A stretch of 64,000 bases of DNA from Candidatus Eiseniibacteriota bacterium. GTDB taxonomy: Bacteria; Orphanbacterota; Orphanbacteria; Orphanbacterales; Orphanbacteraceae. The translations under genes were made by a program, and so were the position numbers. The notes below the pieces were generated by a model, which saw nothing but the letters and a program-made list of their open reading frames with translations, was not told the origin of the DNA and did not search any database. Positions within the stretch are counted from its first letter, which is position 1. Each line of letters begins with the position of its first letter. Shown piece by piece: positions 12,984 to 30,490 of the stretch. The stretch is taken from contig JAFGGD010000030.1 of the NCBI GenBank assembly GCA_016930695.1, positions 56,321-120,320 on the forward strand. The letters are read 5' to 3'.

Positions 12984-14513
12984 ATGAAACAGCGTTTCGA
13001 AGAGACGAACGACGCCCCCTTCGAGGCGATCCGCAAGGCGGTCCGTTTCGACGGCGCGGAGGAGGAAGCCCTGCGGGAGGTGGCGGCGGAGTTCGCTCCG
13101 GCGGTCGATCTCCACATCGAGGCATGGCTTCCCGATTGGCCCGACGAGGAACGCGCCCTCTACCGCGCCCTCTTTTTCGAGGGGCCACGCGATGGGGACT
13201 ACCCGGAGCGCCGGAAGAAGATCCGAGAGAGGGTCCTCGCGGCGGGAGGGAACGACGGCCGGGGGGCCGCGGTCTGGGCGGCGGGGCTGATCCGTCTGGC
13301 GGAGGAGCGGTTCGGCGGCGATCCGGTTCGGCTCGCCCGCGCCGTCGCGGCGATCGGGAGGGCCGCCCTGCTCGACAGGGAGGCGGCCCGCGCACCCTTC
13401 ACTCCTGAAGGACCGGGTCCGGGCGAGATCCTGAAGACGATCGGCCCCGGCTTCAGCCTCCCCGCGGAGGGGGAACTGGAAGAGGGGACCGATCCGGCGA
13501 TGGTCCTGGTCCTCTTCCGGGACGGGCGTTTCGCGGACGCCAACCAGACCGCCCTCGACGCGCTCGGCTTCCGCCGGGACGAGATTCGCCGCCTCACCAT
13601 ACGGAACGTGCTCCCCGAAGAGCAGCACGCGCGGGTGCGGATGCACCTGGAGAGGGTCGCCCGGAGCGGCCACGACCACGTGGCGGCGCACATCATCGAC
13701 CGGGAGGGGCAGGCGACCCACGTGGAGATGATCAGCAGCGCCATCTACGACGACGGGGGGCGCCTGCAGGGAACGCGCATCTTTCTCCGCGACCTGACCC
13801 ATCAGAAACGACTGGAGGAGGAGAAGCTCCGCTGGGAGCGTCTGGTCGCCGTGGGGAGCATGGCCGCCAAGGTCGCCCACGAGATCCGCAACCCTCTCTC
13901 GTCGATCTCGCTCAACGTGGAGCTTCTCATGGATCAGCTGGGCGGCCTCCCCGACGAGGACCGCGCCGAGGCGGGGCAACTGGTCAACTCGATCCTCTCC
14001 GAAATCGATCGCCTGACCAATGTGATCGAGGAGTACCTCAGTTTCGGCCGGCTCCCCAGCCCCTCTCTGGAGCCGGTGCGCGTCCGGGATTTCCTGCGCT
14101 CCGTCTCGGACTTCGTCCGGCCGGACCTCAGAAGCCACGGGATCGGCCTCACGATCGACGTGCTCCCCGGTACGCCGCGTCTCCTGGCCGACACGAGCCA
14201 GGCGAGGCAGTGCCTCCTCAACCTCTTCCGGAACGCCCAGGAGGCGATGAACGCCGGCGGCGAGATCCAGGTGACCGCGGGCCCGCGGGAGGGGAATGTG
14301 CTCGTCGAGGTCCGTGACACCGGCGCCGGCATCCCCCGGGAAAATCTCTCCAAGATCTTCGACCCCTTCTACACGACCAAGGACTTCGGGACCGGCCTCG
14401 GCCTCGCCTTCGTGCAGCAGGTGATGCGCGAACACGGCGGCCGGGTGGTCTGCCGGAGCCGCGAGGGGAAGGGGACCGTATTCGGTCTCTATTTCCCCGC
14501 CGACGAGGCCTGA
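12984..14513 (+). CDS. Cytoplasmic sensor histidine kinase (PAS + HisKA + HATPase_c)
   Basis: No TM segment. PAS-like segment MVLVLFRDGRFADANQTALDALGFRRDEIRRLTIRNVLPEE. H-box MAAKVAHEIRNPLSSISLNVELL. N, G1 and G2 boxes (LLNLFRNAQEAM, VRDTGAGIP, GTGLGLAFVQQVMREHGG). Confidence 0.85.
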   Translation: MKQRFEETNDAPFEAIRKAVRFDGAEEEALREVAAEFAPAVDLHIEAWLPDWPDEERALYRALFFEGPRDGDYPERRKKIRERVLAAGGNDGRGAAVWAAGLIRLAEERFGGDPVRLARAVAAIGRAALLDREAARAPFTPEGPGPGEILKTIGPGFSLPAEGELEEGTDPAMVLVLFRDGRFADANQTALDALGFRRDEIRRLTIRNVLPEEQHARVRMHLERVARSGHDHVAAHIIDREGQATHVEMISSAIYDDGGRLQGTRIFLRDLTHQKRLEEEKLRWERLVAVGSMAAKVAHEIRNPLSSISLNVELLMDQLGGLPDEDRAEAGQLVNSILSEIDRLTNVIEEYLSFGRLPSPSLEPVRVRDFLRSVSDFVRPDLRSHGIGLTIDVLPGTPRLLADTSQARQCLLNLFRNAQEAMNAGGEIQVTAGPREGNVLVEVRDTGAGIPRENLSKIFDPFYTTKDFGTGLGLAFVQQVMREHGGRVVCRSREGKGTVFGLYFPADEA

Positions 14514-14516
14514 TCC

Positions 14517-15731
14517 TTGGGCCGTCCGATCGCACTCGCGGGCGGCGGCCTCGCGGCTCACCTCCGCGCCGACCGTACGGTGATCGAGAGGACGAACGGC
14601 GCCGAGGCGGTCGCGTGGGACGCCGAGGGGCGCCTCCTCACCGACCAGGTCGGCCGGTGCGTCCTCAGGCGAGGGCTCTCCGGCCGTTTCCTACTCCGGG
14701 AACGCGCCGGGGCGGGCGGGCGGCCTCTCGATGCGGGAGAAGAAGGAGAGGTGATCGAGAGGACCCTCCGGATCGCCCGCGACGCGGCGGATCGCCTGGA
14801 GGGGAGTGACGCGGGGCCGGAGGAGAGGAGAGAACTCGTCGAACGCCTCGCGAGGATCCTCTCCCGGGACGCGGCGCGCTACGCCGAAGACGCGCGTCGT
14901 TTCAACCGCATCTGGAAACCGATTCCCATCCTCCCCCCGGATCGCGGCCTCGCCCTCGTGGCGCAGGGGACGGAGGGGTGTTCCTGGGGGCGCTGCCTCT
15001 TCTGCGGCCTCTATCCGGATGGGAGTTTCCGGGTGAAAGGGGAAGAGGAGTTCGCCCGTCACATTCGGGACGCCCTCTCCTTCCTCGGCCGCTCCGCGCT
15101 CACCCGGAACGCGCTCTTTTTCGGCGACGGCGATCCATTCGCCGCTCCGGACCGCCTGCTCCTCCCCTTGGTGGACCGCCTTCTCGCCGAGATGGACGCC
15201 GCCGCGCGGAGGGGCGATCCGGTCCCCCTCACCCGCGACCTGTACGCCTTCGCCCGCCTCTCCACGCTCGCCGGGCGCGACGCCGCCTCGCTCGCCGCCT
15301 ACGGCCGCCGCGGCTTCCGGCGGCTCTACATCGGCGTCGAGACGGGCGACCCGGAACTCTACGCGATCCTGCGCAAACCGGGCGACTCGGGCGAACTCCC
15401 CCGCGCGGTCCGCGCCGTACACGAGGCGGGAATGCGTGTGGGCCTGATCTTTCTCGCCGGGGTGGGAGGGAGGCGTTTCCGCGCAAGCCACCGCGCCGGA
15501 ACCATTCGGCTTTTAGAACGAGTGGAGCCGCGAGAAGGAGATCTGGTCTATCTCTCCCCGATCGTCGAGACGCCCGGTTCCGGCTACAGGATATGGATGG
15601 AGGAAGAGGGGATCGAGCCTCTCGGCGAAGATGAAATGGAGAAGGAGGCGAGGACGCTGATGGAGGGGATTCGCGCCCGATCGGGCCGGGCGAAGGTGGC
15701 GTTCTACCCCCTCCGCTCCTTCGTGTATTGA
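14517..15731 (+). CDS. Radical-SAM-like enzyme with non-canonical CX4CX2C cluster motif
   Basis: TTG start 4 nt after the kinase stop, with a long Arg/Ala-rich N-terminus, so the exact start is uncertain. ALVAQGTEGCSWGRCLFCG gives a CX4CX2C motif with an aromatic residue before the last Cys. A glycine-rich SAM-motif-like FFGDGDP lies ~35 aa later, and a GVQS-like ribose motif YIGVETGDPELYAILRK follows. Confidence 0.5.
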   Translation: MGRPIALAGGGLAAHLRADRTVIERTNGAEAVAWDAEGRLLTDQVGRCVLRRGLSGRFLLRERAGAGGRPLDAGEEGEVIERTLRIARDAADRLEGSDAGPEERRELVERLARILSRDAARYAEDARRFNRIWKPIPILPPDRGLALVAQGTEGCSWGRCLFCGLYPDGSFRVKGEEEFARHIRDALSFLGRSALTRNALFFGDGDPFAAPDRLLLPLVDRLLAEMDAAARRGDPVPLTRDLYAFARLSTLAGRDAASLAAYGRRGFRRLYIGVETGDPELYAILRKPGDSGELPRAVRAVHEAGMRVGLIFLAGVGGRRFRASHRAGTIRLLERVEPREGDLVYLSPIVETPGSGYRIWMEEEGIEPLGEDEMEKEARTLMEGIRARSGRAKVAFYPLRSFVY

Positions 15732-15863: not shown

Positions 15864-17249
15864 ATGTTGGCGGAGAAAGAGACTAGGCGGAAGGCGGCGG
15901 TTCTCGTCATCGACGACGAAGCGGAGATCCGCCAGTCCCTCCAGAAACTGCTCACCAGGGAAGGGTACGAAGTCCACGCCGCCGCCGACGGCAAGGAGGC
16001 GATGAGCCTCGTCCGGACCCACCGTTTCCCCGTCGCCCTCTCCGACCTCCGCCTACCCGACGTGGACGGCCTCGACCTCCTGAAGATGCTCAAGATCGCT
16101 TCTCCCGAGACGGAAGTGGTGATGATCACCGGGTACGGCACCGTGGACGACGCGGTCCGGGCGATGAAGGACGGCGCCTACGACTTCATCCAGAAGCCGG
16201 TCAAGCGCCATCTGATCCTGAAGTCGGTGGAGAAAGCGCTGGAGAGAAGAGCGCTCGCCTCCGAGAACCGGGAGCTGCGCGCCCGGATTCGTTCCATGGA
16301 GAGAACGACCAGCCCGGTCAGCGCATCCCCGTCGATGCAGAAGGTCATCGAGATGGCGGAGCAGGTGGCGCCGAGCGCCGCGTCGGTGCTGATCCAGGGG
16401 GAGAGCGGGACCGGCAAGGAGGTGATCGCCGACATCATCCACGCCGCGAGCCTCCGCAAGGACGCCCCCTTCATCAAGGTGAACTGCGCCGCCATCCCGG
16501 AGACGCTCCTGGAGGCGGAACTCTTCGGCCATGAAAAGGGCTCCTTTACGGGCGCGGTCTCACGGCGAATCGGGCGCTTCGAACTGGCCGACGGGGGCAC
16601 CCTCTTCCTCGACGAAATCGGCGAGATGTCGCAAGCGACGCAGGTGAAGCTGCTCCGCGTGCTCCAGGAGGGTGAGTTCGAGAGGGTGGGGGGGGCGGAG
16701 ACTCTACGCGTGGACGTGCGGATTCTGGCCGCCACCAACGCCGACCTGGAGGAAGCGATCCGGTCGAGGCGCTTCCGCGAGGATCTCTACTACCGTCTGA
16801 ACGTGGTCACCATCCACATCCCTCCCCTCCGGGAACGGCCGGAGGACATCCCCCTTTTGGCGGAGCGCTTCATGCGCGCCTTCAACGAGAGGAACAACAA
16901 GGCGATCGAGGGGCTCTCGCCGGAGGTGATCGATCGCTTTCTCCAGTACGGCTGGCCCGGCAACGTACGTGAGCTGGAGAACGTGATCGAGAGGGCGGTC
17001 GTCCTCGGAAAAGGGAGGTTCGTCGAGCCCGAGGATCTTCCCCCGTCGCTCCATCGCCGGGAAGGGGTGGAGAGCGCCGTCCGCGTCCCCTTCGGCATGA
17101 CCATGGCGCAGGCGGAGCACCGGATCATCACCGAGACCCTTCGCCGCACCCGCGGAAACAAGGAGATGGCGGCCCGCCTCCTCGGCATCGCCGCACGAAC
17201 CATCTATCGAAAATTGGAGAACCCCCCGCCCCCGTTTCAGGCGGAATGA
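15864..17249 (+). CDS. Sigma-54-dependent response regulator (NtrC family: REC + AAA+ sigma-54 activator + HTH)
   Basis: Receiver domain [11 protein letters not shown]...[14 protein letters not shown]. Walker [15 protein letters not shown]-like box GSFTGA and [10 protein letters not shown]-like [11 protein letters not shown]-terminal Fis-type [25 protein letters not shown]. Confidence 0.9.
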
Positions 17250-17434
17250 TGATCCCCCTCCGGGGATTGCGCGAATCGGACCGGTCTGTTACGCTCCTTT
17301 CGTCTTGTCAAAATGTCCCGTCCGAGGTTTCGCGGCGGGTTCATCTTGTCAGTCCCCCCGGAAGCCCCGAAGGGAGGGCTGCCCTTAAAGCAATACAAAT
17401 CAACCGGTTGCATTCTTTCTTTCCTTCCGGTTGG

Positions 17435-17450
17435 TGGCATGAGCCTTGCG
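17435..17450 (+). promoter_or_regulatory. Sigma-54 promoter (TGGCAT-N5-TTGCG) upstream of kor operon
   Basis: -24 GG and -12 GC at canonical spacing, read directly. 89 nt upstream of the korD ATG and 186 nt downstream of the sigma-54 activator gene. Confidence 0.6.
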
Positions 17451-17538
17451 ATGCACGGATACGGACTTTTTATTCACGGTAAGGCGAAAGCCCGTTATTA
17501 ACCCCCAGTCCGCGGCACGCGGAGGAAGGGATTCCCGA

Positions 17539-17799
17539 ATGGCGGAACAGAAAACCAAGAGCACCAAGGGGTGGATCGAGATCTTCGAGGAGTACTGCAA
17601 GGGCTGCTACCTCTGCGTGGAGGACTGTCCCCAGAAAGACATCGAGATCGCCGATCACCTGAACACCAAAGGATTTCACCCGGCCAAACCGATCGGGCTC
17701 CGATGCGTCGGCTGCGGGATCTGCTTCATGGCGTGTCCCGAACCGCGGGCGATCCGGGTGCACAAAACGGTCCCGGAGAAAAAAGGAGGGGATCGCTGA
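17539..17799 (+). CDS. korD: 2-oxoacid:ferredoxin oxidoreductase delta subunit (2x[4Fe-4S] ferredoxin)
   Basis: RBS GGAGGAAGGG. Two CxxCxxCxxxCP motifs ([12 protein letters not shown] and [12 protein letters not shown]) in an 86-aa protein. Confidence 0.8.
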
Positions 17800-18860
17800 T
17801 GGCCCGGAAACTGATGAAGGGGAACGTAGCGGTGGTCATGGGGGCGATCCTCGCGGACTGCCGCGCCTTCTTCGGATACCCGATCACGCCGGCGAGCGAG
17901 ATCACCGAGACGGCGGCGGACCTGTTCCCCCGCCTCGGCCGCGTCTTCCTGCAGGCGGAGAGCGAAGTGGCCGCGATCAACATGGTCTACGGCGCCGCGT
18001 CGACGGGAACCCGCACCATGACCGCCTCCTCTTCGCCGGGGATCAGCCTGAAGCAGGAAGGAATCTCTTACTGCGCCGGCTCGGAACTGCCGTGCGTGAT
18101 CGTCGACGTGGTGCGCGGCGGCCCGGGCTTGGGCAACATCGCGCCGGAACAGGCGGACTACTTCCAGATGGTCAAAGGGGGCGGCCACGGCAACTACAGG
18201 AACATCGTCCTCGCCCCCAACTGCGCCCAGGAGATGTGCGACTTCACCAAGCTCGCCTTCGACCTGGCCGATAAGTACCGCAACCCGGTGGTGATTCTCA
18301 CGGACGGTTTCATCGGGCAGATGATGGAGCCGGTGGAACTGGAATACGACCCGGTCACGGCGCCGAAGAAAGAGTGGTCCGTGGACGGAACGAGCGCCAC
18401 GCAGGGGAATCTGGTTTGCTCCATTCAGCTCGCCCCGGAGGAGCTGGAACAGCACGTGTACCATTTGTACGAGAAGTATGCAAAGGTCGAGGCGGCGGAG
18501 ATCCGCTTCGAGGAATACCTCACCGAAGACGCGGAGATCATCACCGTCGGATACGGCGTGATGTCCCGCATCCTCACGTCCGTGGTGGACGAGGCGCGCC
18601 GCCGGGGGATCAAGGCGGGCATGATCCGTCCCATCTCCCTTTGGCCCTTCCCGACGGAGATCATCCGGAAGTACGCCGACTCGGACCGGGTGAAGGAGTT
18701 CTTCGTGGGCGAGCTGGCGATGGGACAGATGGTGGAGGACGTCCGCCTCGCCGTGGAGGGCCGGAAGCCGGTCCGCCAGTTCCACCGCGTCGGCGGCATG
18801 GTGCCCGACGAGGCCGAGGTTCTGGAAGCCCTCATGGCGCCGAAGGGGGTGGCGAAGTGA
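17799..18860 (+). CDS. korA: 2-oxoacid:ferredoxin oxidoreductase alpha subunit
   Basis: TGATG overlap with the korD stop. N-terminus [35 protein letters not shown] is typical of POR/KOR alpha subunits. Confidence 0.85.
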
Positions 18861-20272
18861 CGGAAAAGATCATCGAGAAACCGCGAAGCATTCTGGACGA
18901 ATACAAATACAAACCGGGGGCGGACAAGACTTCGACCCACTACTGCCCCGGCTGCGGCCACGGCAACATCCACAAGCTGATCGGCATGGCCGTGGACGAG
19001 CTGGACGTGGCGGACCGCACCATCCTGATCAGCCCGGTCGGGTGCAGCGTTTTCGCCTACTACTACTTCAACTTCGGCAACATCCAGGTCCCCCACGGCC
19101 GGGCGCCGGCGGCGGCGACGGGCGCCAAACGAAGCCGTCCGGACTCGATCGTCATCTCCTACCAGGGGGACGGCGACCTGGCGGCCATCGGCGGGAACAA
19201 CATCCTGCAGGCGGCCAACCGCGGCGAGAACATCACCGTCTTTTTCGTGAACAACGCGATCTACGGGATGACCGGAGGCCAGATGGCCCCCACCACCCTC
19301 GTCGGACAGAGCACCTCCACCACCCCCCGGGGGCGCACGATCCGGAACGAGGGCTACCCGATCCGCGTGTGCGAGCTTCTCTCCTCGCTCGAGGCGCCGG
19401 CCTACCTCGAGAGGGTCGCCCTCATCGATCCCAAGCACGTCGCCAAGGCGCGCAAGGCGATCAAGAAGGCGATCCAGACTCAGGTCGAAGGGAAAGGTTT
19501 CTCGCTCGTGGAGATTCTCTCCCCCTGCCCGACGGGTTGGAAGATCACGCCGGTGCAGTCGCGCAAATGGATCGAAGAGACGATGCTTCCCATCTTCCCG
19601 CTGGGCGTCTACCGGGACAAGACCGGCGACGAACCCGGCTCATTCGACGAGCTTGATCCGGAACCGGTGGAGAGGGTGCTCGGCATCGGCGGCGACGACG
19701 GCGGCGATAAAGCGCCCCGGCAAAAACTGGACCGGGAGATCCGGATGAAGGTCGCCGGTTTCGGCGGCCAGGGAATCCTCTTCCTCGGCGAAGTGCTCGC
19801 GGACGCGGGTATGCACGCCGGCTATCACGTCACCTGGCTCCCTTCCTATGGACCGGAGATGCGGGGGGGAACGGCGAACTGCCAGGTCGTCGTCAGCGAA
19901 GAGCGGATCGGCGCGCCCCTGGTCTCGCGGCCGACCGTGCTGATCGCCATGAACCGGCCTTCCTTCGAGCGATTCACTCCCGACCTTCAGCCCGGGGGAA
20001 CGGTGATCTACGACTCCTCGTTGATCGAGAACGTGACCGTCCCGGAGGGGATCAAGGGATACGGCGTGCCGGCCACCAAGATCGCCGATGATCTGGGGAA
20101 CACCCGTGTGGCGAACGTGGTCGCGATGGGCGCCTACCTGGGGGTCACCGATCTCTTCTCGAGGGAGCAGGCCGAGAAGGCTCTCCGTCTGCACATCAAG
20201 AAGGAGAAGCTCATTCCCCTGAACCTGAAGGCGCTCGACGCCGGCATTCAGGCGGCCAAGGCGCTCCTGTAG
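18857..20272 (+). CDS. korB: 2-oxoacid:ferredoxin oxidoreductase beta subunit (TPP-binding) fused to gamma subunit
   Basis: GTG start overlapping the korA stop (GTGA). Beta-subunit hallmarks YCPGCGHG and GDGD...GGNN (TPP-binding). An in-frame C-terminal ~190 aa beginning [29 protein letters not shown] matches gamma subunits (GFGGQG...YGPEMRGG). Confidence 0.8.
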
Positions 20273-20312: not shown

Positions 20313-20675
20313 ATGGCTCGGAAAGCGCGAATCCTCGTGATCGAGGACGATCTAGGGCTCAGGGCGTCGCTCTGCGCCCTTTTTCGTCGCGCCCGTTACG
20401 ACCCTCTCGGCGTCTCCTCTCCGGAAGGGCTCCGTCTCCTCCGGAAGGGGCTGGACGTGGACTTGATCGTCGCGGATCTCTGGGACGGGCCGCCGGAGGG
20501 AAGGGCCCTCCTCCGCCTTCTCGACCGGACGGGCCGACGCGGCATGCTCCTTCGCCTTTCCGATCCTCGCGGCGGCGGCGGCGGGGAAGAGGAGCGTGAG
20601 GAGGATCTCTCCGTGACCGACAATATCCTCCACCGCGGCAGGCTGCTCGATCAGGTCGCACGCATGCTCGAATGA
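20313..20675 (+). CDS. Single-domain receiver-like protein (atypical/orphan REC)
   Basis: MARKARILVIEDDLGLR...DLIVADL keeps the acidic pocket residues, but the conserved T/S and K are not evident. The C-terminus is Gly/Glu-rich and low-complexity. Confidence 0.4.
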   Translation: MARKARILVIEDDLGLRASLCALFRRARYDPLGVSSPEGLRLLRKGLDVDLIVADLWDGPPEGRALLRLLDRTGRRGMLLRLSDPRGGGGGEEEREEDLSVTDNILHRGRLLDQVARMLE

Positions 20676-20818: not shown

Positions 20819-21106
20819 ATGGTCCGTCCAGAAGAGGACGGGAGAATCCTCTTTCGCTTCTCCTGTCCGGAAAGGCAGGGACCGGTTTTCCTGGTGGGGG
20901 ACTTCAACGGGTGGAGCGAGAGAAGACACCCGATGGAGCGTACCCCGGACGGCCACTGGCGAATCCGCATACCGCTTCCGCCCGGACGCTACGCCTTCAA
21001 GTACCTCTGCCGGGGAGACTGGTACAACGACCCGCAGGCGGACGCCTACCGCGAGAACGCCTGGGGGAGCGTCGACTCCCTGATCAGCATCCCCCGTTCG
21101 CGTTGA
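20819..21106 (+). CDS. Stand-alone CBM48 (glycogen-binding/early-set) domain protein
   Basis: 95 aa. RFSCPERQGPVFLVGDFNGWSERRHPMERTPDGHWRIRIPLPPGRYAFKY resembles the N-terminal CBM48 of isoamylases/branching enzymes and the AMPK-beta GBD. Confidence 0.55.
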   Translation: MVRPEEDGRILFRFSCPERQGPVFLVGDFNGWSERRHPMERTPDGHWRIRIPLPPGRYAFKYLCRGDWYNDPQADAYRENAWGSVDSLISIPRSR

Positions 21107-21349: not shown

Positions 21350-23698
21350 ATGAGCCGAATCGACCGCTTGTACGAGGAGTCGGAACCGCATTTTCCCCGA
21401 TGGGAAACGATCAAGGATTGCGTCGATCAGTTCATTGATTTGATGCTCAATTATCGCCAGAGCGGCCACCCGGGGGGCTCGCGTTCCAAAACGCACGCCC
21501 TTGTGGCGACACTGCTCGGCGGTGTGATGCGCTGGGACATCCGCCGCCCCGACGCCCCCTTCGGCGATCGCTTCGTTCTGGTGGCCGGACACACCGTTCC
21601 CCTGGTCTACGCCACCCTGGCGGTGCTGAACGAGTCGCTGCGCGCCCGGCACCGCGAAACCGGCGACCCCCGCTTCCTCATCCGCAAGGAAGAGGAACGC
21701 GCCCTCTACGCGGAGCACCTGCTCGGCTTCCGCCGGAACGGAGGCCTATCGGGACACGCCGAGATGGAAGGGCGGACCCTCTTCCTCAAGTTCAACACCG
21801 GCCCATCCGGCCACGGCTCGCCGGCGGCGGCGGGCGAGGCGCTGGCGCTGAGGCGCGCCGGGGCGGCGGGCGTTCGCGTCTTCGCCTTCGAGGGGGAAGG
21901 GGGGCACTCCGCCGGTGCGATCCACGAAACCAAGAACTCCGCCTGGGGGCTCGGCCTGGACAATCTGATCTACGTGCTCGACTGGAACGACTTCGGGATC
22001 GACGACCACCGGGTCTCCTCGGTGATCGCCGGCGGACCGGAGGATTGGTTCGGCGCCTACGGGTGGAGGGTGCGCGGGGCGGAGGAAGGAAGCGCCTGGG
22101 GTCCCGTCACGCGGGCCCTTCTCGAGATCGTCCACGATCCGGATCCGGGAGGGCGGCCCGGCGCCGTTTGGATCCGCACCCGAAAGGGACGCGGCTACCT
22201 GAAATACGACAACAAATCCCACGGCTCGCCGCACGCGGCGAACTCGGAACTCTTCTGGGAGACGAAGCGGGAATTCGCCGAGAAGTACGGCGTTCGCTTC
22301 GAGGGTTTCGGCCGGCCCCTCCCGTCGGATCCGGAGGCGGTGCGGGAACAGGCGGCGGCCAACTACCAAATCGTGCTCGACGTCATCCGGAAGGACCGGG
22401 ATCTTCTCCACTACCTGACCGACCGCCTCGTGGAGATCGGCGAGTCGGTGCCGGACCGGCTCGAAGGCTTCCGCATCCCGGAGGAACGGAACCCGGCCGA
22501 GGACGAAACATTCTTCGATTGCCGCGCCTACCCGGAAACGATCTGGGCGAAGCCGGGCGAGAAGAAACCGAACCGGGCCGCCCTCGCCTCGTGGGGCGCC
22601 TGGATCAACTCGGCGAGCCGGGAACGATACGGGAGGCCCCTCTTCATCGCCTGCAGCGCCGACCTGGCCGATTCGACCAACATCTCCGGCTTCGGAAACG
22701 GGTGGGAAGGGTCGGAGGGATGGGGCTGGTACGAACGGGAGACGAACCCGGAGGGAGCCCTCCTCCCGCAGGAGATCACCGAGTTCACCAACGCGGGGAT
22801 CATGGCGGGACTGGCGTCGGTGAACTTCTCCCGGGAGCCGGAGAAGCGGTTCAACGGGTTCTGGGGGGCCTGCTCCACCTACGGTTCCTTTTCGTACCTC
22901 AAGTATGGGCCGATGCGTCTCTTCAGCCAGCTCGCGCAGGACTGCGACCTGCGGGTCGGCCGCGTCCTCTGGGTGGCGGGCCACTCCGGCCCGGAAACGG
23001 CGGACGATTCGCGCACCCATTTCGGCATCTTCGCCCCCGGCGTAACCGATCTCTTTCCGCGGGGCCGGGTGGTGAACCTCCATCCCTGGGAGTACAACGA
23101 GGTGCCAGTGGTGCTCGCCGAGGCCTTTCGCGGCGACTGGCCGATCGTGGTCCTTCATCTCACCCGCCCGCCCGTGGAAATCCCGGACCGGGAGGCGCTC
23201 GGGATGGCGCATCACTTCGAGGCGGCCCGCGGCGCCTACCTGATCCGGCCCTACCGGGAGGACAAGCCCCGGGGCGGCGTTCTTTTCGTGCAGGGGACGT
23301 CCACCACGGCCAATCTGATTCGCGTGTTGCCGGAGCTGGACCGAGAAGGTTTGAATGTAAAGATCGTGGCGGCGATCTCCCGGGAGCTGTTCGACCGGCA
23401 GCCGGAGCCTTACAGAAACGGCCTCGTTTCCGACGCGGACTGGATCGACTCGACGGTGATCACCAACCGCTCCCGCCTCCTCGCCGGACCCTGGTTGGCG
23501 CACCGGGACGCGGAGGCTTACGCCATATCCTCGGACTGGGACGACCGTTGGCGGACCGGAGGCACGTTGGAGGAGGTGTGCGAGGAGGCGCGCATCTCGC
23601 CGGAGTGGATCCTACGCGGGATCGAGCGTTTCGTCCGGGACCGGGAAAAGCGTCTCGGCCGGATCGCCGGCGCGCTGGCGAGGGCGCGAAAAGAGTGA
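21350..23698 (+). CDS. Transketolase-family TPP-dependent enzyme (unusually long, 782 aa)
   Basis: SGHPGGS and DRFVLVAGH align to the transketolase N-terminal motifs SGHPG and DRFVLSNGH. GEGGHSAG, NLIYVLDWNDFGIDD and FGAYGWRV align to the GDGCMMEG, NLI..DDNGISIDG and FEAYGWHV region. About 120 extra residues relative to classical Tkt. Confidence 0.7.
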   Translation: MSRIDRLYEESEPHFPRWETIKDCVDQFIDLMLNYRQSGHPGGSRSKTHALVATLLGGVMRWDIRRPDAPFGDRFVLVAGHTVPLVYATLAVLNESLRARHRETGDPRFLIRKEEERALYAEHLLGFRRNGGLSGHAEMEGRTLFLKFNTGPSGHGSPAAAGEALALRRAGAAGVRVFAFEGEGGHSAGAIHETKNSAWGLGLDNLIYVLDWNDFGIDDHRVSSVIAGGPEDWFGAYGWRVRGAEEGSAWGPVTRALLEIVHDPDPGGRPGAVWIRTRKGRGYLKYDNKSHGSPHAANSELFWETKREFAEKYGVRFEGFGRPLPSDPEAVREQAAANYQIVLDVIRKDRDLLHYLTDRLVEIGESVPDRLEGFRIPEERNPAEDETFFDCRAYPETIWAKPGEKKPNRAALASWGAWINSASRERYGRPLFIACSADLADSTNISGFGNGWEGSEGWGWYERETNPEGALLPQEITEFTNAGIMAGLASVNFSREPEKRFNGFWGACSTYGSFSYLKYGPMRLFSQLAQDCDLRVGRVLWVAGHSGPETADDSRTHFGIFAPGVTDLFPRGRVVNLHPWEYNEVPVVLAEAFRGDWPIVVLHLTRPPVEIPDREALGMAHHFEAARGAYLIRPYREDKPRGGVLFVQGTSTTANLIRVLPELDREGLNVKIVAAISRELFDRQPEPYRNGLVSDADWIDSTVITNRSRLLAGPWLAHRDAEAYAISSDWDDRWRTGGTLEEVCEEARISPEWILRGIERFVRDREKRLGRIAGALARARKE

Positions 23699-26551: not shown

Positions 26552-26986
26552 CACGAATCCCTCCGGGCAACACCGTACCAACGGCGCCGATGTGAGTCAA
26601 GATCGACGCAATCCGCATCGCCCCCTCGCATTCTGGATTCCGCCCTTCTTGACACAACGCCTCTATTGCATTAAAATAAATATCGACAACGGCTTAAGGT
26701 TGGTGCGCGCCTTTTCCCCATCATGCGGGAAAAGACCCTCGAGCCGGAATCGATTGTGCCGCAACCGAGTACCGGGACATCCCCCCCGCACTCCCGGAGA
26801 GGTGTGAGGCAAAACGCCTTACATCGCTCGATCGACCGTGAGAGGGTTCTTCTTCCTGAAAGGGAGAGAGGGCGAGGAGCGGGTGTTGCCCATGAACCGT
26901 GATTTCATTCTAGCAAACGGTTTGTACCGCGGACCTCAGAAATCACCCGAGGTCCCTCTGTGCTTTCTTTGCACACCCCCTATCCC

Positions 26987-27002
26987 TGGCACCCCCCTTG
27001 CA
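26987..27002 (+). promoter_or_regulatory. Sigma-54 promoter (TGGCAC-N5-TTGCA), near-consensus
   Basis: Exact -24 TGGCAC and -12 TTGCA with a 5-nt spacer, read directly, 215 nt upstream of the 27218 start codon. Confidence 0.6.
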
Positions 27003-27217: not shown

Positions 27218-30200
27218 TTGACGATGCGCTTCCTTCGAACTATTCCGGCGCTTTCGATCCTGGCCGGCGCGCTTCTCTGCGCGGCCCTCCCCGCGGCGGC
27301 GGTCGAAGGGCTCCTTCTGATCGCGCCGGGCGGGGCGGGCTGGACCGATTCGCGGGACGCCATCGAGGGAGCGGGCGGCCGTCTCCTCTTCGCCTTCCCA
27401 CCGGGGGGTGCGGTGATTGAGGGACCGGATTCCTTCTGGGAGAGGATCGCCGGGCTACGCGACGATTGGACCGTCCGTTTCGACGCGATCCCCGAGTCGG
27501 AGTCGGCCGGGTTCGAGCGGACCGCGCGTTTCGCGGCGCATGCTTGGAACAGGAGGCTCTCGCCGCCGGCGCGGGGGGCGCATCGCGCCGGAGAGCCGGG
27601 AGAGAGCCGCGCCGGTCCGGCCCCCGCCGGCGACGGGGGCATGATGAAGGCGCCTCCGGGCGGCAATTTCTTCGACACGAGCGAGTTCTTCCTCGGCACG
27701 GTCGCGATCGCCATCCTCCTTCCGGAGAGCGACGGTTCGATCGATCCCTCCACCGAAAACTGGTCCGCCGCGCGGATCGACTCCGTGATCGCCGAGGTGC
27801 AGGAGGGAGCGGCCTGGTGGATCGGGAAGGCGCCGGGCGGGCGGCTTTCCTTCGTGTATGAAATCCCCGATCCGATCCCCTGTCCCTATGAGCCGATCTC
27901 ACGCAACGCGTTCGTGGCGAAACAGGAGACCCTCTGGGTCCGCACCGTTTTCGATTCCCTGGGCTACGCCTCCGGCGACACATGGTTTCGCGGCCGTTCC
28001 TACCTGAACGACGTGCGGGACACCCACGGCGCCGACTGGGCGGTGGCGGTTTTCGTCGCCGACTCCGAGAACGATCCGGACGGGAGGTTCGCCAACAGCC
28101 TGATCGGGTTCTCCTACTACGGCGGGCCCTACCACTGCATGACCTACGACTGCGGTTCCTACGGGATCGGGGGGATGCGCGCCGTCGAGGCGCACGAGCT
28201 GGCGCACAATTTCTACGCCCTCGACGAATACTACTCGGCCCACAAGGGGTGCGCCCTGAAGGCGGGATACCTTTACGCGGAGAACCAGAACAGCGAATAC
28301 GGTTCCTGCATTCTCGACGAATCGTGCATCATGCGGGACGACCTGCAGGCGGCCTACGACTCGAGCGCCGCCTGCGTCTACACCCTCGCGCAGGTCGGGA
28401 TGGCCGACGACGACGAAGACGGGATCGCCGATATTCTGGACACCCATCCGAGCACCCTCTTCGACGCCTTCCCCGACTCGACCGACGATGTGACTCCGAC
28501 CGTCGGCGGCGCCGCCGAGGTGAATCCCCGCACCAACCGGAACGCGCTCGGCGAAGGGAACGACATCACGCTGAACACGATTTCCGCCGTGCAGGTCCGC
28601 ATAGACGGGGGGGAATGGCTCGTCGCGCAGCCGGCGGACGGCGTATTCGATTCCACCTGGGAAGCCTTCACCTTCACCGCTCCGGCGGTGACCGAGACCG
28701 CCCACGTCTTCGAGGCCCGGGCGATCAACTCCGAGGGGAACGCGGACACGGTCTTCGCCGCGGAGACGCTCCTCGTCTACGACGGCACGCCGCCGTCACC
28801 GGTGGCATCGCCCGTCGCCGCGGCCCTCGACTCATCGGTCACGCTGGCCTGGGTCGCGCCCGAGGACGGCGACTACGAAGCGGTGATGATCCGCTTCGGC
28901 ACCGCCGCCTACCCGGCGGACACGCTCGACGGTTTCCTCCTGGAACGGCGCGCCGGCGCCCCCGGCGAACCGGACACGACGATCCACGCCGGCCTCTTCC
29001 CGGACACCACCTACTATTACGCCTTCTTCTCTCTCGACGAGGCGTCCAACCCCTCGGCGCGCGCGGAGGCCACCGCCACGCCTCTCTACCCGCTCCCGCC
29101 GGCGGCCCTCCTCGCGCCCCCGGCCGGATCGCTTTATGTCGAAATCGAAACGGACTTTCTCTGGAGCGCGATCCCCCTCGATGATCCGCTCGACACATTG
29201 ATCGCCTACGCCGTGCAGATCGCCCGGGACAGCCTGTTCACCGACGTGCTGGTGGACAGCGAAGCGACCGCCGGATCGCCTGCGGACACCTTCTGGACCT
29301 GCGCCGGCCTCCCCGAGGGGACCATCCTCTGGTGGCGCGCGCGCGGCCTGGACGTCCTCTCCGGCACATGGGGCCTTTGGGGCGTGGGATCGCGATTCGC
29401 CACCCGGCTCCCCCTCGCGGGGATCGCCTTCCTCGACTCCACGCTCTCCGGCTACACCAACTTCGCCGACGGCGATTCGCTTCTCCCCAACGAGGACGCG
29501 CGCGTCGAGGTCCGTATCGAACCGGCGGACACTCTCGACATCGGCGGCTTCGCCGGCTGGGTCCGCTGGGAGGGAACCACGACCGACTCCGCGCCCCTCG
29601 CCCTGGACAGGAACGAGGGGGGATACGGCTACTGGCGGGGCGAGATCCCCTATGGAACCGCCTTCCACCGCGGGGACACGGTCTCCTTTTACGTCTCCGC
29701 CGGAGCCCCCTACCAAGCGGGTCTGCGGGACAAGAACGCCGGGGACGACTACGCCTTCACGGCGGGGAGGAGCAAGCTCGCCGCGCTCCACGTGCCGGAG
29801 CAGACGGACCCCTATGTGCCGATGCGGTATCCCTTCATCCCGAGCGACGCGGATCCGTCGATCACTCTGACGATCCGCGCCGAGCCTTCCGGGAACGTCA
29901 CCGGCGGCGCGGCCGTTCTCCGTGTCGCCGGCGATCCGAACTACTCTCTCTTCCCGGTCCTTTCGGACACGCTGATCGGCGGCGTCGATTACCTCACCGT
30001 TCTCGTCGATTCCACCTTCGACGTCGACGACGTGGTGGAGTACTACCTGCGGGTCTGGGGTGACCCGTCGCTTTGGGACACCACCTTCCTCTACGGGACC
30101 AACGACACGAGCCGGACCGCCTCCGTCGAGGCGAGCGCCGCGGGCGCGCCCTTCACCTTCCTCGTGCACAGCGTGACCGGGCTTCCCGCGGCGGGAGACG

Positions 30201-30490
30201 GGCTCCTCCCGTCCCGAAACGAACTTCTTCCGAACGCGCCCAATCCGTTCAACCCGACGACCACCCTCTCCTTCGCACTCACCCGCGCCGAGCGCGTCAG
30301 CCTCGCACTCTTCGACGTGCGGGGACGGCTGGTCCGCGTGCTGATGGACGACGCCCGCCCGCCGGGCTGGCACGAAATCGCCTGGAACGGCTTGGACGGC
30401 GGCGGGAAGGAAGCGCCGAGCGGCGTCTACTTCTCCGTGCTCCGGGGGAACGGCTGGAACCAAACCCGCAAGATCGTCCTCATCCGTTAA
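27218..30490 (+). CDS. Large secreted zinc metallopeptidase-like protein (HEXXH) with T9SS C-terminal sorting domain
   Basis: Signal peptide MTMRFLRTIPALSILAGALLCAALPAAA. MRAVEAHELAHNFYALDEYY contains HEXXH with a downstream acidic residue. 1090 aa with a Gly/Asp-rich beta-rich body. C-terminus ...SGVYFSVLRGNGWNQTRKIVLIR. Confidence 0.65.
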   Translation: MTMRFLRTIPALSILAGALLCAALPAAAVEGLLLIAPGGAGWTDSRDAIEGAGGRLLFAFPPGGAVIEGPDSFWERIAGLRDDWTVRFDAIPESESAGFERTARFAAHAWNRRLSPPARGAHRAGEPGESRAGPAPAGDGGMMKAPPGGNFFDTSEFFLGTVAIAILLPESDGSIDPSTENWSAARIDSVIAEVQEGAAWWIGKAPGGRLSFVYEIPDPIPCPYEPISRNAFVAKQETLWVRTVFDSLGYASGDTWFRGRSYLNDVRDTHGADWAVAVFVADSENDPDGRFANSLIGFSYYGGPYHCMTYDCGSYGIGGMRAVEAHELAHNFYALDEYYSAHKGCALKAGYLYAENQNSEYGSCILDESCIMRDDLQAAYDSSAACVYTLAQVGMADDDEDGIADILDTHPSTLFDAFPDSTDDVTPTVGGAAEVNPRTNRNALGEGNDITLNTISAVQVRIDGGEWLVAQPADGVFDSTWEAFTFTAPAVTETAHVFEARAINSEGNADTVFAAETLLVYDGTPPSPVASPVAAALDSSVTLAWVAPEDGDYEAVMIRFGTAAYPADTLDGFLLERRAGAPGEPDTTIHAGLFPDTTYYYAFFSLDEASNPSARAEATATPLYPLPPAALLAPPAGSLYVEIETDFLWSAIPLDDPLDTLIAYAVQIARDSLFTDVLVDSEATAGSPADTFWTCAGLPEGTILWWRARGLDVLSGTWGLWGVGSRFATRLPLAGIAFLDSTLSGYTNFADGDSLLPNEDARVEVRIEPADTLDIGGFAGWVRWEGTTTDSAPLALDRNEGGYGYWRGEIPYGTAFHRGDTVSFYVSAGAPYQAGLRDKNAGDDYAFTAGRSKLAALHVPEQTDPYVPMRYPFIPSDADPSITLTIRAEPSGNVTGGAAVLRVAGDPNYSLFPVLSDTLIGGVDYLTVLVDSTFDVDDVVEYYLRVWGDPSLWDTTFLYGTNDTSRTASVEASAAGAPFTFLVHSVTGLPAAGDGLLPSRNELLPNAPNPFNPTTTLSFALTRAERVSLALFDVRGRLVRVLMDDARPPGWHEIAWNGLDGGGKEAPSGVYFSVLRGNGWNQTRKIVLIR

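Follow-up and report, generated by a model that had tools for sequence, protein, structure and literature searches.

A 64,000-nt stretch of DNA from a metagenome-assembled genome of the uncultivated Candidatus Eisenbacteria (the window) was analyzed, with the focus on the 289-bp spacer between the gene of an NtrC-family enhancer-binding protein (the activator, whose stop codon ends at 17249) and korD (ATG at 17539, + strand), the first gene of a 2-oxoacid:ferredoxin oxidoreductase operon. The results indicate that this spacer is very probably a complete enhancer-dependent sigma-54 promoter region that drives the oxidoreductase operon through the adjacent activator. The motif, its excess over expectation, its conservation, its co-occurrence with the activator gene, the geometry of the region, and the protein domains were observed, and the regulatory steps are inferred from them. 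Gene calls around the promoter were checked against Pfam and confirmed, and the motif scans covered both strands of the window (128 kb). The argument turns on four features of the spacer:

17306 to 17320, + strand: candidate enhancer, upstream activating sequence 1 (UAS1), TGTCAAAATGTCCCG, made up of invariant alignment columns, 129 bp upstream of the T of TGGCA.
17347 to 17351, + strand: candidate enhancer UAS2, an invariant TGTCA, 88 bp upstream of TGGCA.
17385 to 17426, + strand: A/T-rich island between the enhancer blocks and the promoter, holding AATCAACCGGTTG and a 10-bp palindrome.
17435 to 17450, + strand: sigma-54 -24/-12 promoter element TGGCATGAGCCTTGCG, whose GG doublet occupies 17436-17437 and whose GC doublet occupies 17448-17449.

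The motif TGGCAT-N5-TTGCG, which the sequence-only reading had placed at 17435-17450, lies at exactly those coordinates, and its distances from the flanking genes were also borne out (186 nt from the preceding activator stop and 89 nt from the following korD ATG). It is composed of TGGCAT (17435-17440), the spacer GAGCC (17441-17445), and TTGCG (17446-17450); the GG and GC doublets are 10 bp apart, and the TGGCAC-N5-TTGCW consensus is matched save at two positions. The pattern TGGCAY-N5-TTGC occurred twice on the two strands of the window compared with 0.07 expected occurrences, a count reached by 0 of 100 dinucleotide shuffles. Both matches are intergenic and run in the same direction as the gene that follows, and the one on the korD side adjoins the sole sigma-54 activator gene of the window. 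A weight matrix that approximates the published consensus TGGCACG-N4-TTGCW gave scores of 16.7 for the other site (at 26987) and 15.25 for the korD element, and the next best score in the window was 11.46. Under a Markov null, 0.125 matches per window were expected at scores of at least 15.25, and therefore the korD match taken singly is suggestive only.

The comparison with related loci proved decisive. Loci were fetched with the alpha subunit (KorA) as an anchor, 80 from species-representative genomes and 80 from metagenomes. A homologue search with the radical S-adenosylmethionine (SAM) protein encoded upstream of the activator, against 5.8 billion proteins, returned 13 matches, two of which led to the syntenic Eisenbacteria loci L001 and L004. 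The fetched set comprised 165 loci in all (1.2 Mb of DNA; labelled L001 and so on). The delta/alpha/beta-gamma operon was common in Eisenbacteria, Zixibacteria, KSB1, Marinimicrobia, Fermentibacteria, Acidobacteriota, and other groups, and an activator gene directly upstream of korD was found only in the clade nearest the window (KorA identity of at least 73%). Loci with at least 700 nt upstream of korD were counted, with a promoter match defined as a score of at least 12 within 400 nt of korD. All 7 loci that have an adjacent activator showed a match, compared with 1 of 123 loci without one (Fisher p = 7.6e-11); this p value overstates independence, as the seven activator loci represent about five independent lineages in one clade (L001, L087, and L007 are mutually close), and the pattern is all-or-none.

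Some loci stood outside this count or scored lower. The TA06 loci L018 and L099, in which the kinase and activator genes lie 2.8 kb upstream of korD and the only TGGCAC-like site has the wrong GG-GC spacing, were left uncounted. Weaker sigma-54-like matches were also seen upstream of korD as the top match of their loci in a Zixibacteria metagenome-assembled genome (MAG) (L017, around 5228, TGGTACAACTGTTGAA) and in a MAG labelled Gammaproteobacteria (L015, around 571, TGGAAACGGAATTGCA), neither with an adjacent activator gene; these two could be independent cases or chance.

The element was kept in L001, L004, L006, L007, L008, L086, and L087 while the flanking DNA had diverged. In L001 (TGGCACGTGCCTTGCA) and L004 (TGGCATGGGCCTTGCA), it is near-perfect and lies 88 nt before the ATG. 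Across loci with radical SAM proteins of only 48% identity, the element lay 88-94 nt before the korD ATG; in L008 the distance was 36 nt. The closest relative, L086 (KorA 93% identical), whose contig ends within the spacer, retains TGGCATGGGCCTTGCG at 89 nt from the ATG, with one change in the spacer. In a MAFFT alignment of six spacers, the mean column identity was 59%, and the invariant columns fell into four islands, namely TTGTCA...TGTCCCG (window 17305-17320), CA..TGTCA (window 17342-17351), TGGCA.G....TGC (window 17435-17449), and the Shine-Dalgarno sequence with the ATG.

That the element is a chance resemblance or the site of an unrelated dimeric regulator appears extremely improbable. 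Besides the Markov null, by which the single match is not decisive, internal dyads in two loci speak for it (GGCAC-GTGCC in L001 and GGCATG-ATC-CATGCC in L008). However, such a dyad is absent from the window, L004, L006, and L086, whereas GG-N10-GC is invariant, and both the orientation of the element and its strict tie to a sigma-54 activator gene would be unexpected by chance.

The first two islands of the alignment correspond to the candidate enhancer blocks. Measured from the T of TGGCA, UAS1 lies at -127 to -131 and UAS2 at -86 to -90 in the six full-length loci, and the spacing between the two blocks is exactly 41 bp in all six, including L008, whose leader is about 50 nt shorter. The distance from the promoter and the separation by four helical turns match the classical geometry of NtrC-type activators. 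The pattern TGYCA-N3-TGTCCCG had one copy in the window, one in every related locus (6 of 6), and none in the 159 other fetched loci; the window has no further copy of this UAS1 pattern, and the regions preceding the 26987 promoter and the kinase operon, for instance, lack it. The C-terminal helix-turn-helix (HTH_8) region of the activator is nearly invariant among six orthologues, which fits recognition of a shared site. These results suggest that the two TGTCA blocks, and not the palindrome, are likely the best enhancer candidates.

The sequence-only reading had also pointed to the perfect 10-bp palindrome CAACCGGTTG at 17401-17410. The palindrome is real; it is also at chance level, unconserved, and not a likely activator site. 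Perfect 10-bp palindromes number 128 in the window (about 2 per kb), so that one in a 289-bp spacer is unremarkable, and it was kept in no related locus (L086 reads CAAACGGTTA). A role for it as the operator or enhancer controlling the operon is very unlikely: the perfect dyad lies 25 bp upstream of the -24 element, and a second CCGGTTG follows 23 bp downstream of the palindrome, but the dyad is too near the -24 element for a typical enhancer, and its frequency and lack of conservation led us to reject it as a functional site. An IHF-like bending site fits this position better, although it is kept in relatives only as A/T richness. The sequence AATCAACCGGTTG (17398-17410), which overlaps the palindrome, is the window's only perfect match to the IHF consensus WATCAANNNNTTR (0.13 expected). 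An A/T-rich island occupies the same place in all relatives, in DNA of otherwise 64-68% G+C, with only partial agreement to the IHF consensus. In many sigma-54 promoters, IHF sites lie between the enhancer and the -24 element, and the island may serve as a site of DNA bending; no IHF or HU gene turned up in the window in a crude motif search.

Several observations weigh against a sigma-54 promoter under the adjacent activator, in addition to the limited independence of the seven loci. The base at -11 is G, where the consensus has A or T. The UAS blocks resemble direct TGTC repeats without clear dyad symmetry, and NtrC-type dimers typically bind inverted repeats; the assignment of the blocks as activator sites thus stays an inference. 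Six-frame translations of the window and of 86 fetched loci (the first 86 of 165) contained no RpoN box. Read-through from the activator gene into korD is possible, given that no terminator follows the activator gene, and in L001, L004, L006, and L007 the A/T-rich island resembles an extended -10 sequence (TGnTAnAAT; TGTTAGAAT, TGTTACAAT, TGCTATAAT).

The last two observations lead to the alternative that korD is transcribed mostly by read-through or from an extended -10 in the A/T-rich island (TACAAAT in the window), with the -24/-12 element only modulating it. This alternative, which is compatible with a sigma-54 promoter, has little probability as the main source of korD transcripts. No terminator was found between the activator stop and korD (+ strand, spacers of four loci), and a TG-preceded TAnAAT-like hexamer lies at about -30 from TGGCA in the four loci with the extended -10 resemblance; a weak sigma-70-type start may exist in the island. 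However, no sigma-70 -35/-10 pair passed a consensus scan in the spacers of four loci, and the window copy has no TG and matches TATAAT poorly. The alternative also leaves the invariant GG and GC, the fixed spacing to the upstream blocks, and the restriction to activator loci unexplained.

Another alternative is that the sigma-54 promoter is real but is fired by an enhancer-binding protein encoded elsewhere, with the adjacent activator merely syntenic. The second site of the window bears on this question. This element, TGGCACCCCCCTTGCA at 26987-27002 (+ strand), has the top score of the window and lies 222 nt upstream of gene 27224-30490, which encodes an unrelated 1088-aa secreted protein with a FlgD_ig/T9SS-like C-terminus. 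The element is not preceded by a UAS1-like motif, which implies at least one other activator, and a second consensus site argues that this organism has a functional sigma-54 system and several activators. In Desulfovibrio, several enhancer-binding proteins are documented to cross-regulate a single operon (PMC4641369). On the other side, the promoter and the adjacent activator co-occur perfectly and are jointly absent from 122 of 123 other loci, the helix-turn-helix region and the upstream blocks are co-conserved, and the UAS1 pattern was found nowhere else in the 1.2 Mb of fetched DNA. We give control by a protein encoded elsewhere a similarly small probability. No second strong sigma-54 site was found in the kinase-to-activator operons of the relatives. 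In the same 640-nt intergenic region as the 26987 element, well upstream of it, a near-perfect sigma-70 match (TTGACA, 17 nt, TAAAAT) was read by eye at about 26649-26677 (+ strand), and there was no Rfam match there.

Control of the oxidoreductase operon by the adjacent activator through a sigma-54 promoter is therefore supported by the co-occurrence (7/7 versus 1/123), the fixed upstream blocks, the near-invariant helix-turn-helix region, and the fact that no competing sigma-70 promoter or terminator was found in the spacer. A sequence of events can be proposed for it. Sigma-54 RNA polymerase would sit on TGGCAT-N5-TTGCG as a closed complex, and the histidine kinase would phosphorylate the receiver domain of the activator, probably at Asp61, a residue assigned from its position. 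The phosphorylated activator would then oligomerize on UAS1 and UAS2, 41 bp or about four helical turns apart. The DNA would loop over the A/T-rich island, perhaps aided by an IHF/HU-like protein at AATCAACCGGTTG, so that the ATPase meets the polymerase. ATP hydrolysis would open the promoter, with the predicted start near 17461, and the transcript would span the delta, alpha, and beta-gamma genes and perhaps a receiver-like open reading frame (ORF) beyond them.

The leader of this predicted transcript holds one further feature:

17510 to 17530, + strand: leader hairpin CCGCG-GCA-CGCGG (17510-17522), followed by the Shine-Dalgarno sequence GGAGGAAGGG, which is invariant in the alignment.

An equivalent stem before the Shine-Dalgarno sequence was present in five loci, with weak covariation (2 compensatory pairs of 13). 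The predicted 78-nt leader was no more stable than its shuffles (z = 0.52), and Rfam showed no RNA element in the spacer or leader, either at the gathering threshold or at E<=1. A known RNA element in this region was rejected on the basis of the Rfam result, the shuffle-level stability, and the weak covariation.

Three proteins are encoded upstream of the spacer as follows:

12984 to 14513, + strand: sensor histidine kinase, PAS-HisKA-HATPase, with an N-terminal sensor domain of uncertain type (Pfam).
14517 to 15731, + strand: radical SAM protein (Pfam), whose start abuts the kinase stop.
15864 to 17249, + strand: NtrC-family enhancer-binding protein, REC, Sigma54_activat, and HTH_8 (Pfam).

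The Sigma54_activat domain of the activator was matched with an E value of 1.1e-74, and its loop reads GSFTGA (16539-16556), with GAFTGA in the orthologues. The protein matches Aquifex NtrC4 (4l4u) over its full length (5.9e-121), and NtrC4 and NtrC1 are the closest solved structures. Among NCBIfam models, AtoC was the best match, and the scores were below the equivalog cut-offs for AtoC (486.7 versus 714), NtrC (433 versus 558.6), and ZraR (425.8 versus 760).

The kinase is the presumed partner of the activator, and its best NCBIfam match, AtoS, was likewise below the cut-off. Its homologues in L001 and L004 carry a Protoglobin match. For the window kinase, a heme-sensing protoglobin input was unsupported, with a Pfam E value of only 0.2 and no invariant His in a three-sequence alignment.

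In the window, L001, and L004, the radical SAM gene begins directly at the kinase stop or overlaps it. Its product belongs to an uncharacterized family of 13 homologues with an invariant CX4CX2C motif in the alignment, and it had no NCBIfam matches and no sequence relatives in the PDB. The AlphaFold2 (AF2) model (pLDDT of 89.6) matched only generic radical SAM folds (MgmA, Elp3; TM of about 0.45), and the N-terminal beta-rich and helical domain had no structural match. A more distant homologue in L005 (36% identity) is not beside a kinase. A speculative and rather unlikely extension is that the kinase and the radical SAM protein, whose genes are translationally coupled, would form a new sensory input module, in which Fe-S/SAM chemistry would report redox, oxygen, or SAM status or would modify the kinase. 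Such a module would have been recruited via sigma-54 in one Eisenbacteria clade, so that the oxygen-sensitive oxidoreductase (and, in most relatives, a carboxylase set) would be on only when Fe-S enzymes work.

The sequence-only reading had treated the kinase, radical SAM protein, and activator as one cassette. The kinase and the activator proved constant; the radical SAM gene did not, being absent from L008. In L001 and L004, the kinase gene is followed by the radical SAM gene, three acyl-CoA carboxylase genes, the activator gene, a spacer of about 250 nt, and the delta, alpha, and beta-gamma genes. In most relatives, the radical SAM and activator genes are separated by genes for a carboxyltransferase, a biotin carboxylase, and a biotin carrier protein. 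This acyl-CoA carboxylase set was located inside the kinase-to-activator operon at 5185-8803 in L001, 3638-7254 in L004, 489-4097 in L006, and 582-4166 in L008, and it was missing throughout the 64-kb window. Its position in the relatives and its absence here suggest that the ancestral unit coupled carboxylase and oxidoreductase. The cassette is thus a variable operon, in which only the kinase, the activator, and the promoter are constant.

Downstream of the spacer, the predicted transcription unit holds these genes:

17539 to 17799, + strand: delta subunit with two [4Fe-4S] clusters, the first gene of the operon (Pfam, NCBIfam).
17799 to 18860, + strand: alpha subunit, POR_N and PFOR_II (Pfam), whose start overlaps the delta stop.
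18857 to 20272, + strand: fused beta (thiamine pyrophosphate [TPP]-binding)-gamma subunit of 471 aa (Pfam), whose start overlaps the alpha stop.
20313 to 20675, + strand: receiver-like 120-aa ORF, 40 nt beyond the oxidoreductase genes, weakly matching Response_reg and TorR.

The delta/alpha/beta/gamma domain set of a 2-oxoacid:ferredoxin oxidoreductase is complete by Pfam, with beta and gamma in one ORF, and a continuous beta-gamma match was found by tblastn in most of 160 related loci from many phyla. The target had been named kor and described as a central-carbon Fe-S redox enzyme. The Fe-S oxidoreductase was borne out. The alpha subunit passed the NCBIfam model for VorB (3-methyl-2-oxobutanoate; PRK07119) with 523 bits against a cut-off of 399 and failed the model for the 2-oxoglutarate synthase alpha subunit (213.7 versus 579), which leaves the labels kor and central carbon unproven. 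Its nearest solved relatives in the PDB are generic 2-oxoacid:ferredoxin oxidoreductases, and a branched-chain or another 2-oxoacid is equally possible as the substrate.

The receiver-like ORF has a 38% identical copy in the same place in L007 (4568-4909) and is possibly a co-transcribed single-domain regulator. Farther downstream in the window, a small CBM48/AMPK1_CBM protein (20819-21106) lies between the oxidoreductase operon and the gene of a 782-aa protein (21350-23698, + strand) with a weak Transketolase_N match, of which copies with 76-77% identity lie downstream of the operon in L006 (8727-11027) and L007 (5629-7971).

A search of a literature library found no paper linking Eisenbacteria with sigma-54 or rpoN. 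The locus offers a testable circuit in a phylum known only from metagenomes, Candidatus Eisenbacteria, running from the kinase to the NtrC-type activator, two upstream sites, the sigma-54 promoter, and the oxidoreductase, and it supplies a candidate DNA recognition motif for the activator. In one clade, an oxidoreductase operon that is conserved widely and elsewhere regulated in other ways would have come under enhancer-dependent control. It is a textbook principle that adjacent NtrC-family activators govern catabolic operons through sigma-54, and such control of oxidoreductases in this superfamily is already known; therefore, the value lies in annotation and regulon reconstruction and not in a new mechanism.

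The nearest known counterparts are the AtoS-AtoC/atoDAEB system of Escherichia coli and the NtrB-NtrC/glnAp2 system, which likewise pair a PAS-HisKA-HATPase kinase with a REC-AAA+-HTH_8 activator; as here, the activator gene adjoins its catabolic target operon. The candidate sites of this locus resemble their geometry, in which a -24/-12 promoter has two activator sites some 90-130 bp upstream and potentially a bending site in the interval. However, the locus scores well below the equivalog cut-offs and is not an orthologue of AtoS, AtoC, or NtrC. The target here is a ferredoxin-dependent 2-oxoacid oxidoreductase, the upstream blocks look like direct TGTC repeats instead of inverted ones, and the kinase is cytoplasmic, with a divergent N-terminal domain (protoglobin-like in relatives) and a coupled radical SAM gene.

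A second counterpart is the BkdR/SigL-dependent bkd operon of Bacillus subtilis, reportedly described by Debarbouille et al. in 1999, in which sigma-54 and a dedicated adjacent activator also serve the oxidative decarboxylation of 2-oxoacids. The likeness extends to the alpha subunit, which falls in the VorB branched-chain subfamily, and to the acyl-CoA carboxylase set carried by the activator operon of the relatives. In Bacilli, 2-oxoacid dehydrogenase complexes are enriched in sigma-54 regulons (PMC12316311). BkdR is a one-component regulator of an NAD-dependent lipoamide complex, whereas the system here is two-component and its target is an oxygen-sensitive TPP and Fe-S enzyme that reduces ferredoxin.

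The third comparison is with Desulfovibrio vulgaris, in which DVU3025 is por, a pyruvate:ferredoxin oxidoreductase. The sigma-54-dependent two-component response regulator DVU3023 has been assigned to the operon DVU3025-3033 of pyruvate/lactate metabolism, and the indolepyruvate:ferredoxin oxidoreductase genes of DVU1949-ior are co-transcribed with an enhancer-binding protein gene (PMC4641369). GSFTGA loops also occur among the D. vulgaris enhancer-binding proteins with assigned sigma-54-dependent operons (PMC4641369). Compared with these cases, the locus belongs to Eisenbacteria and not to Desulfobacterota, its enzyme is of the delta/alpha/beta-gamma type in place of a single-chain Por or a two-subunit Ior, and the candidate binding motif of its activator differs.

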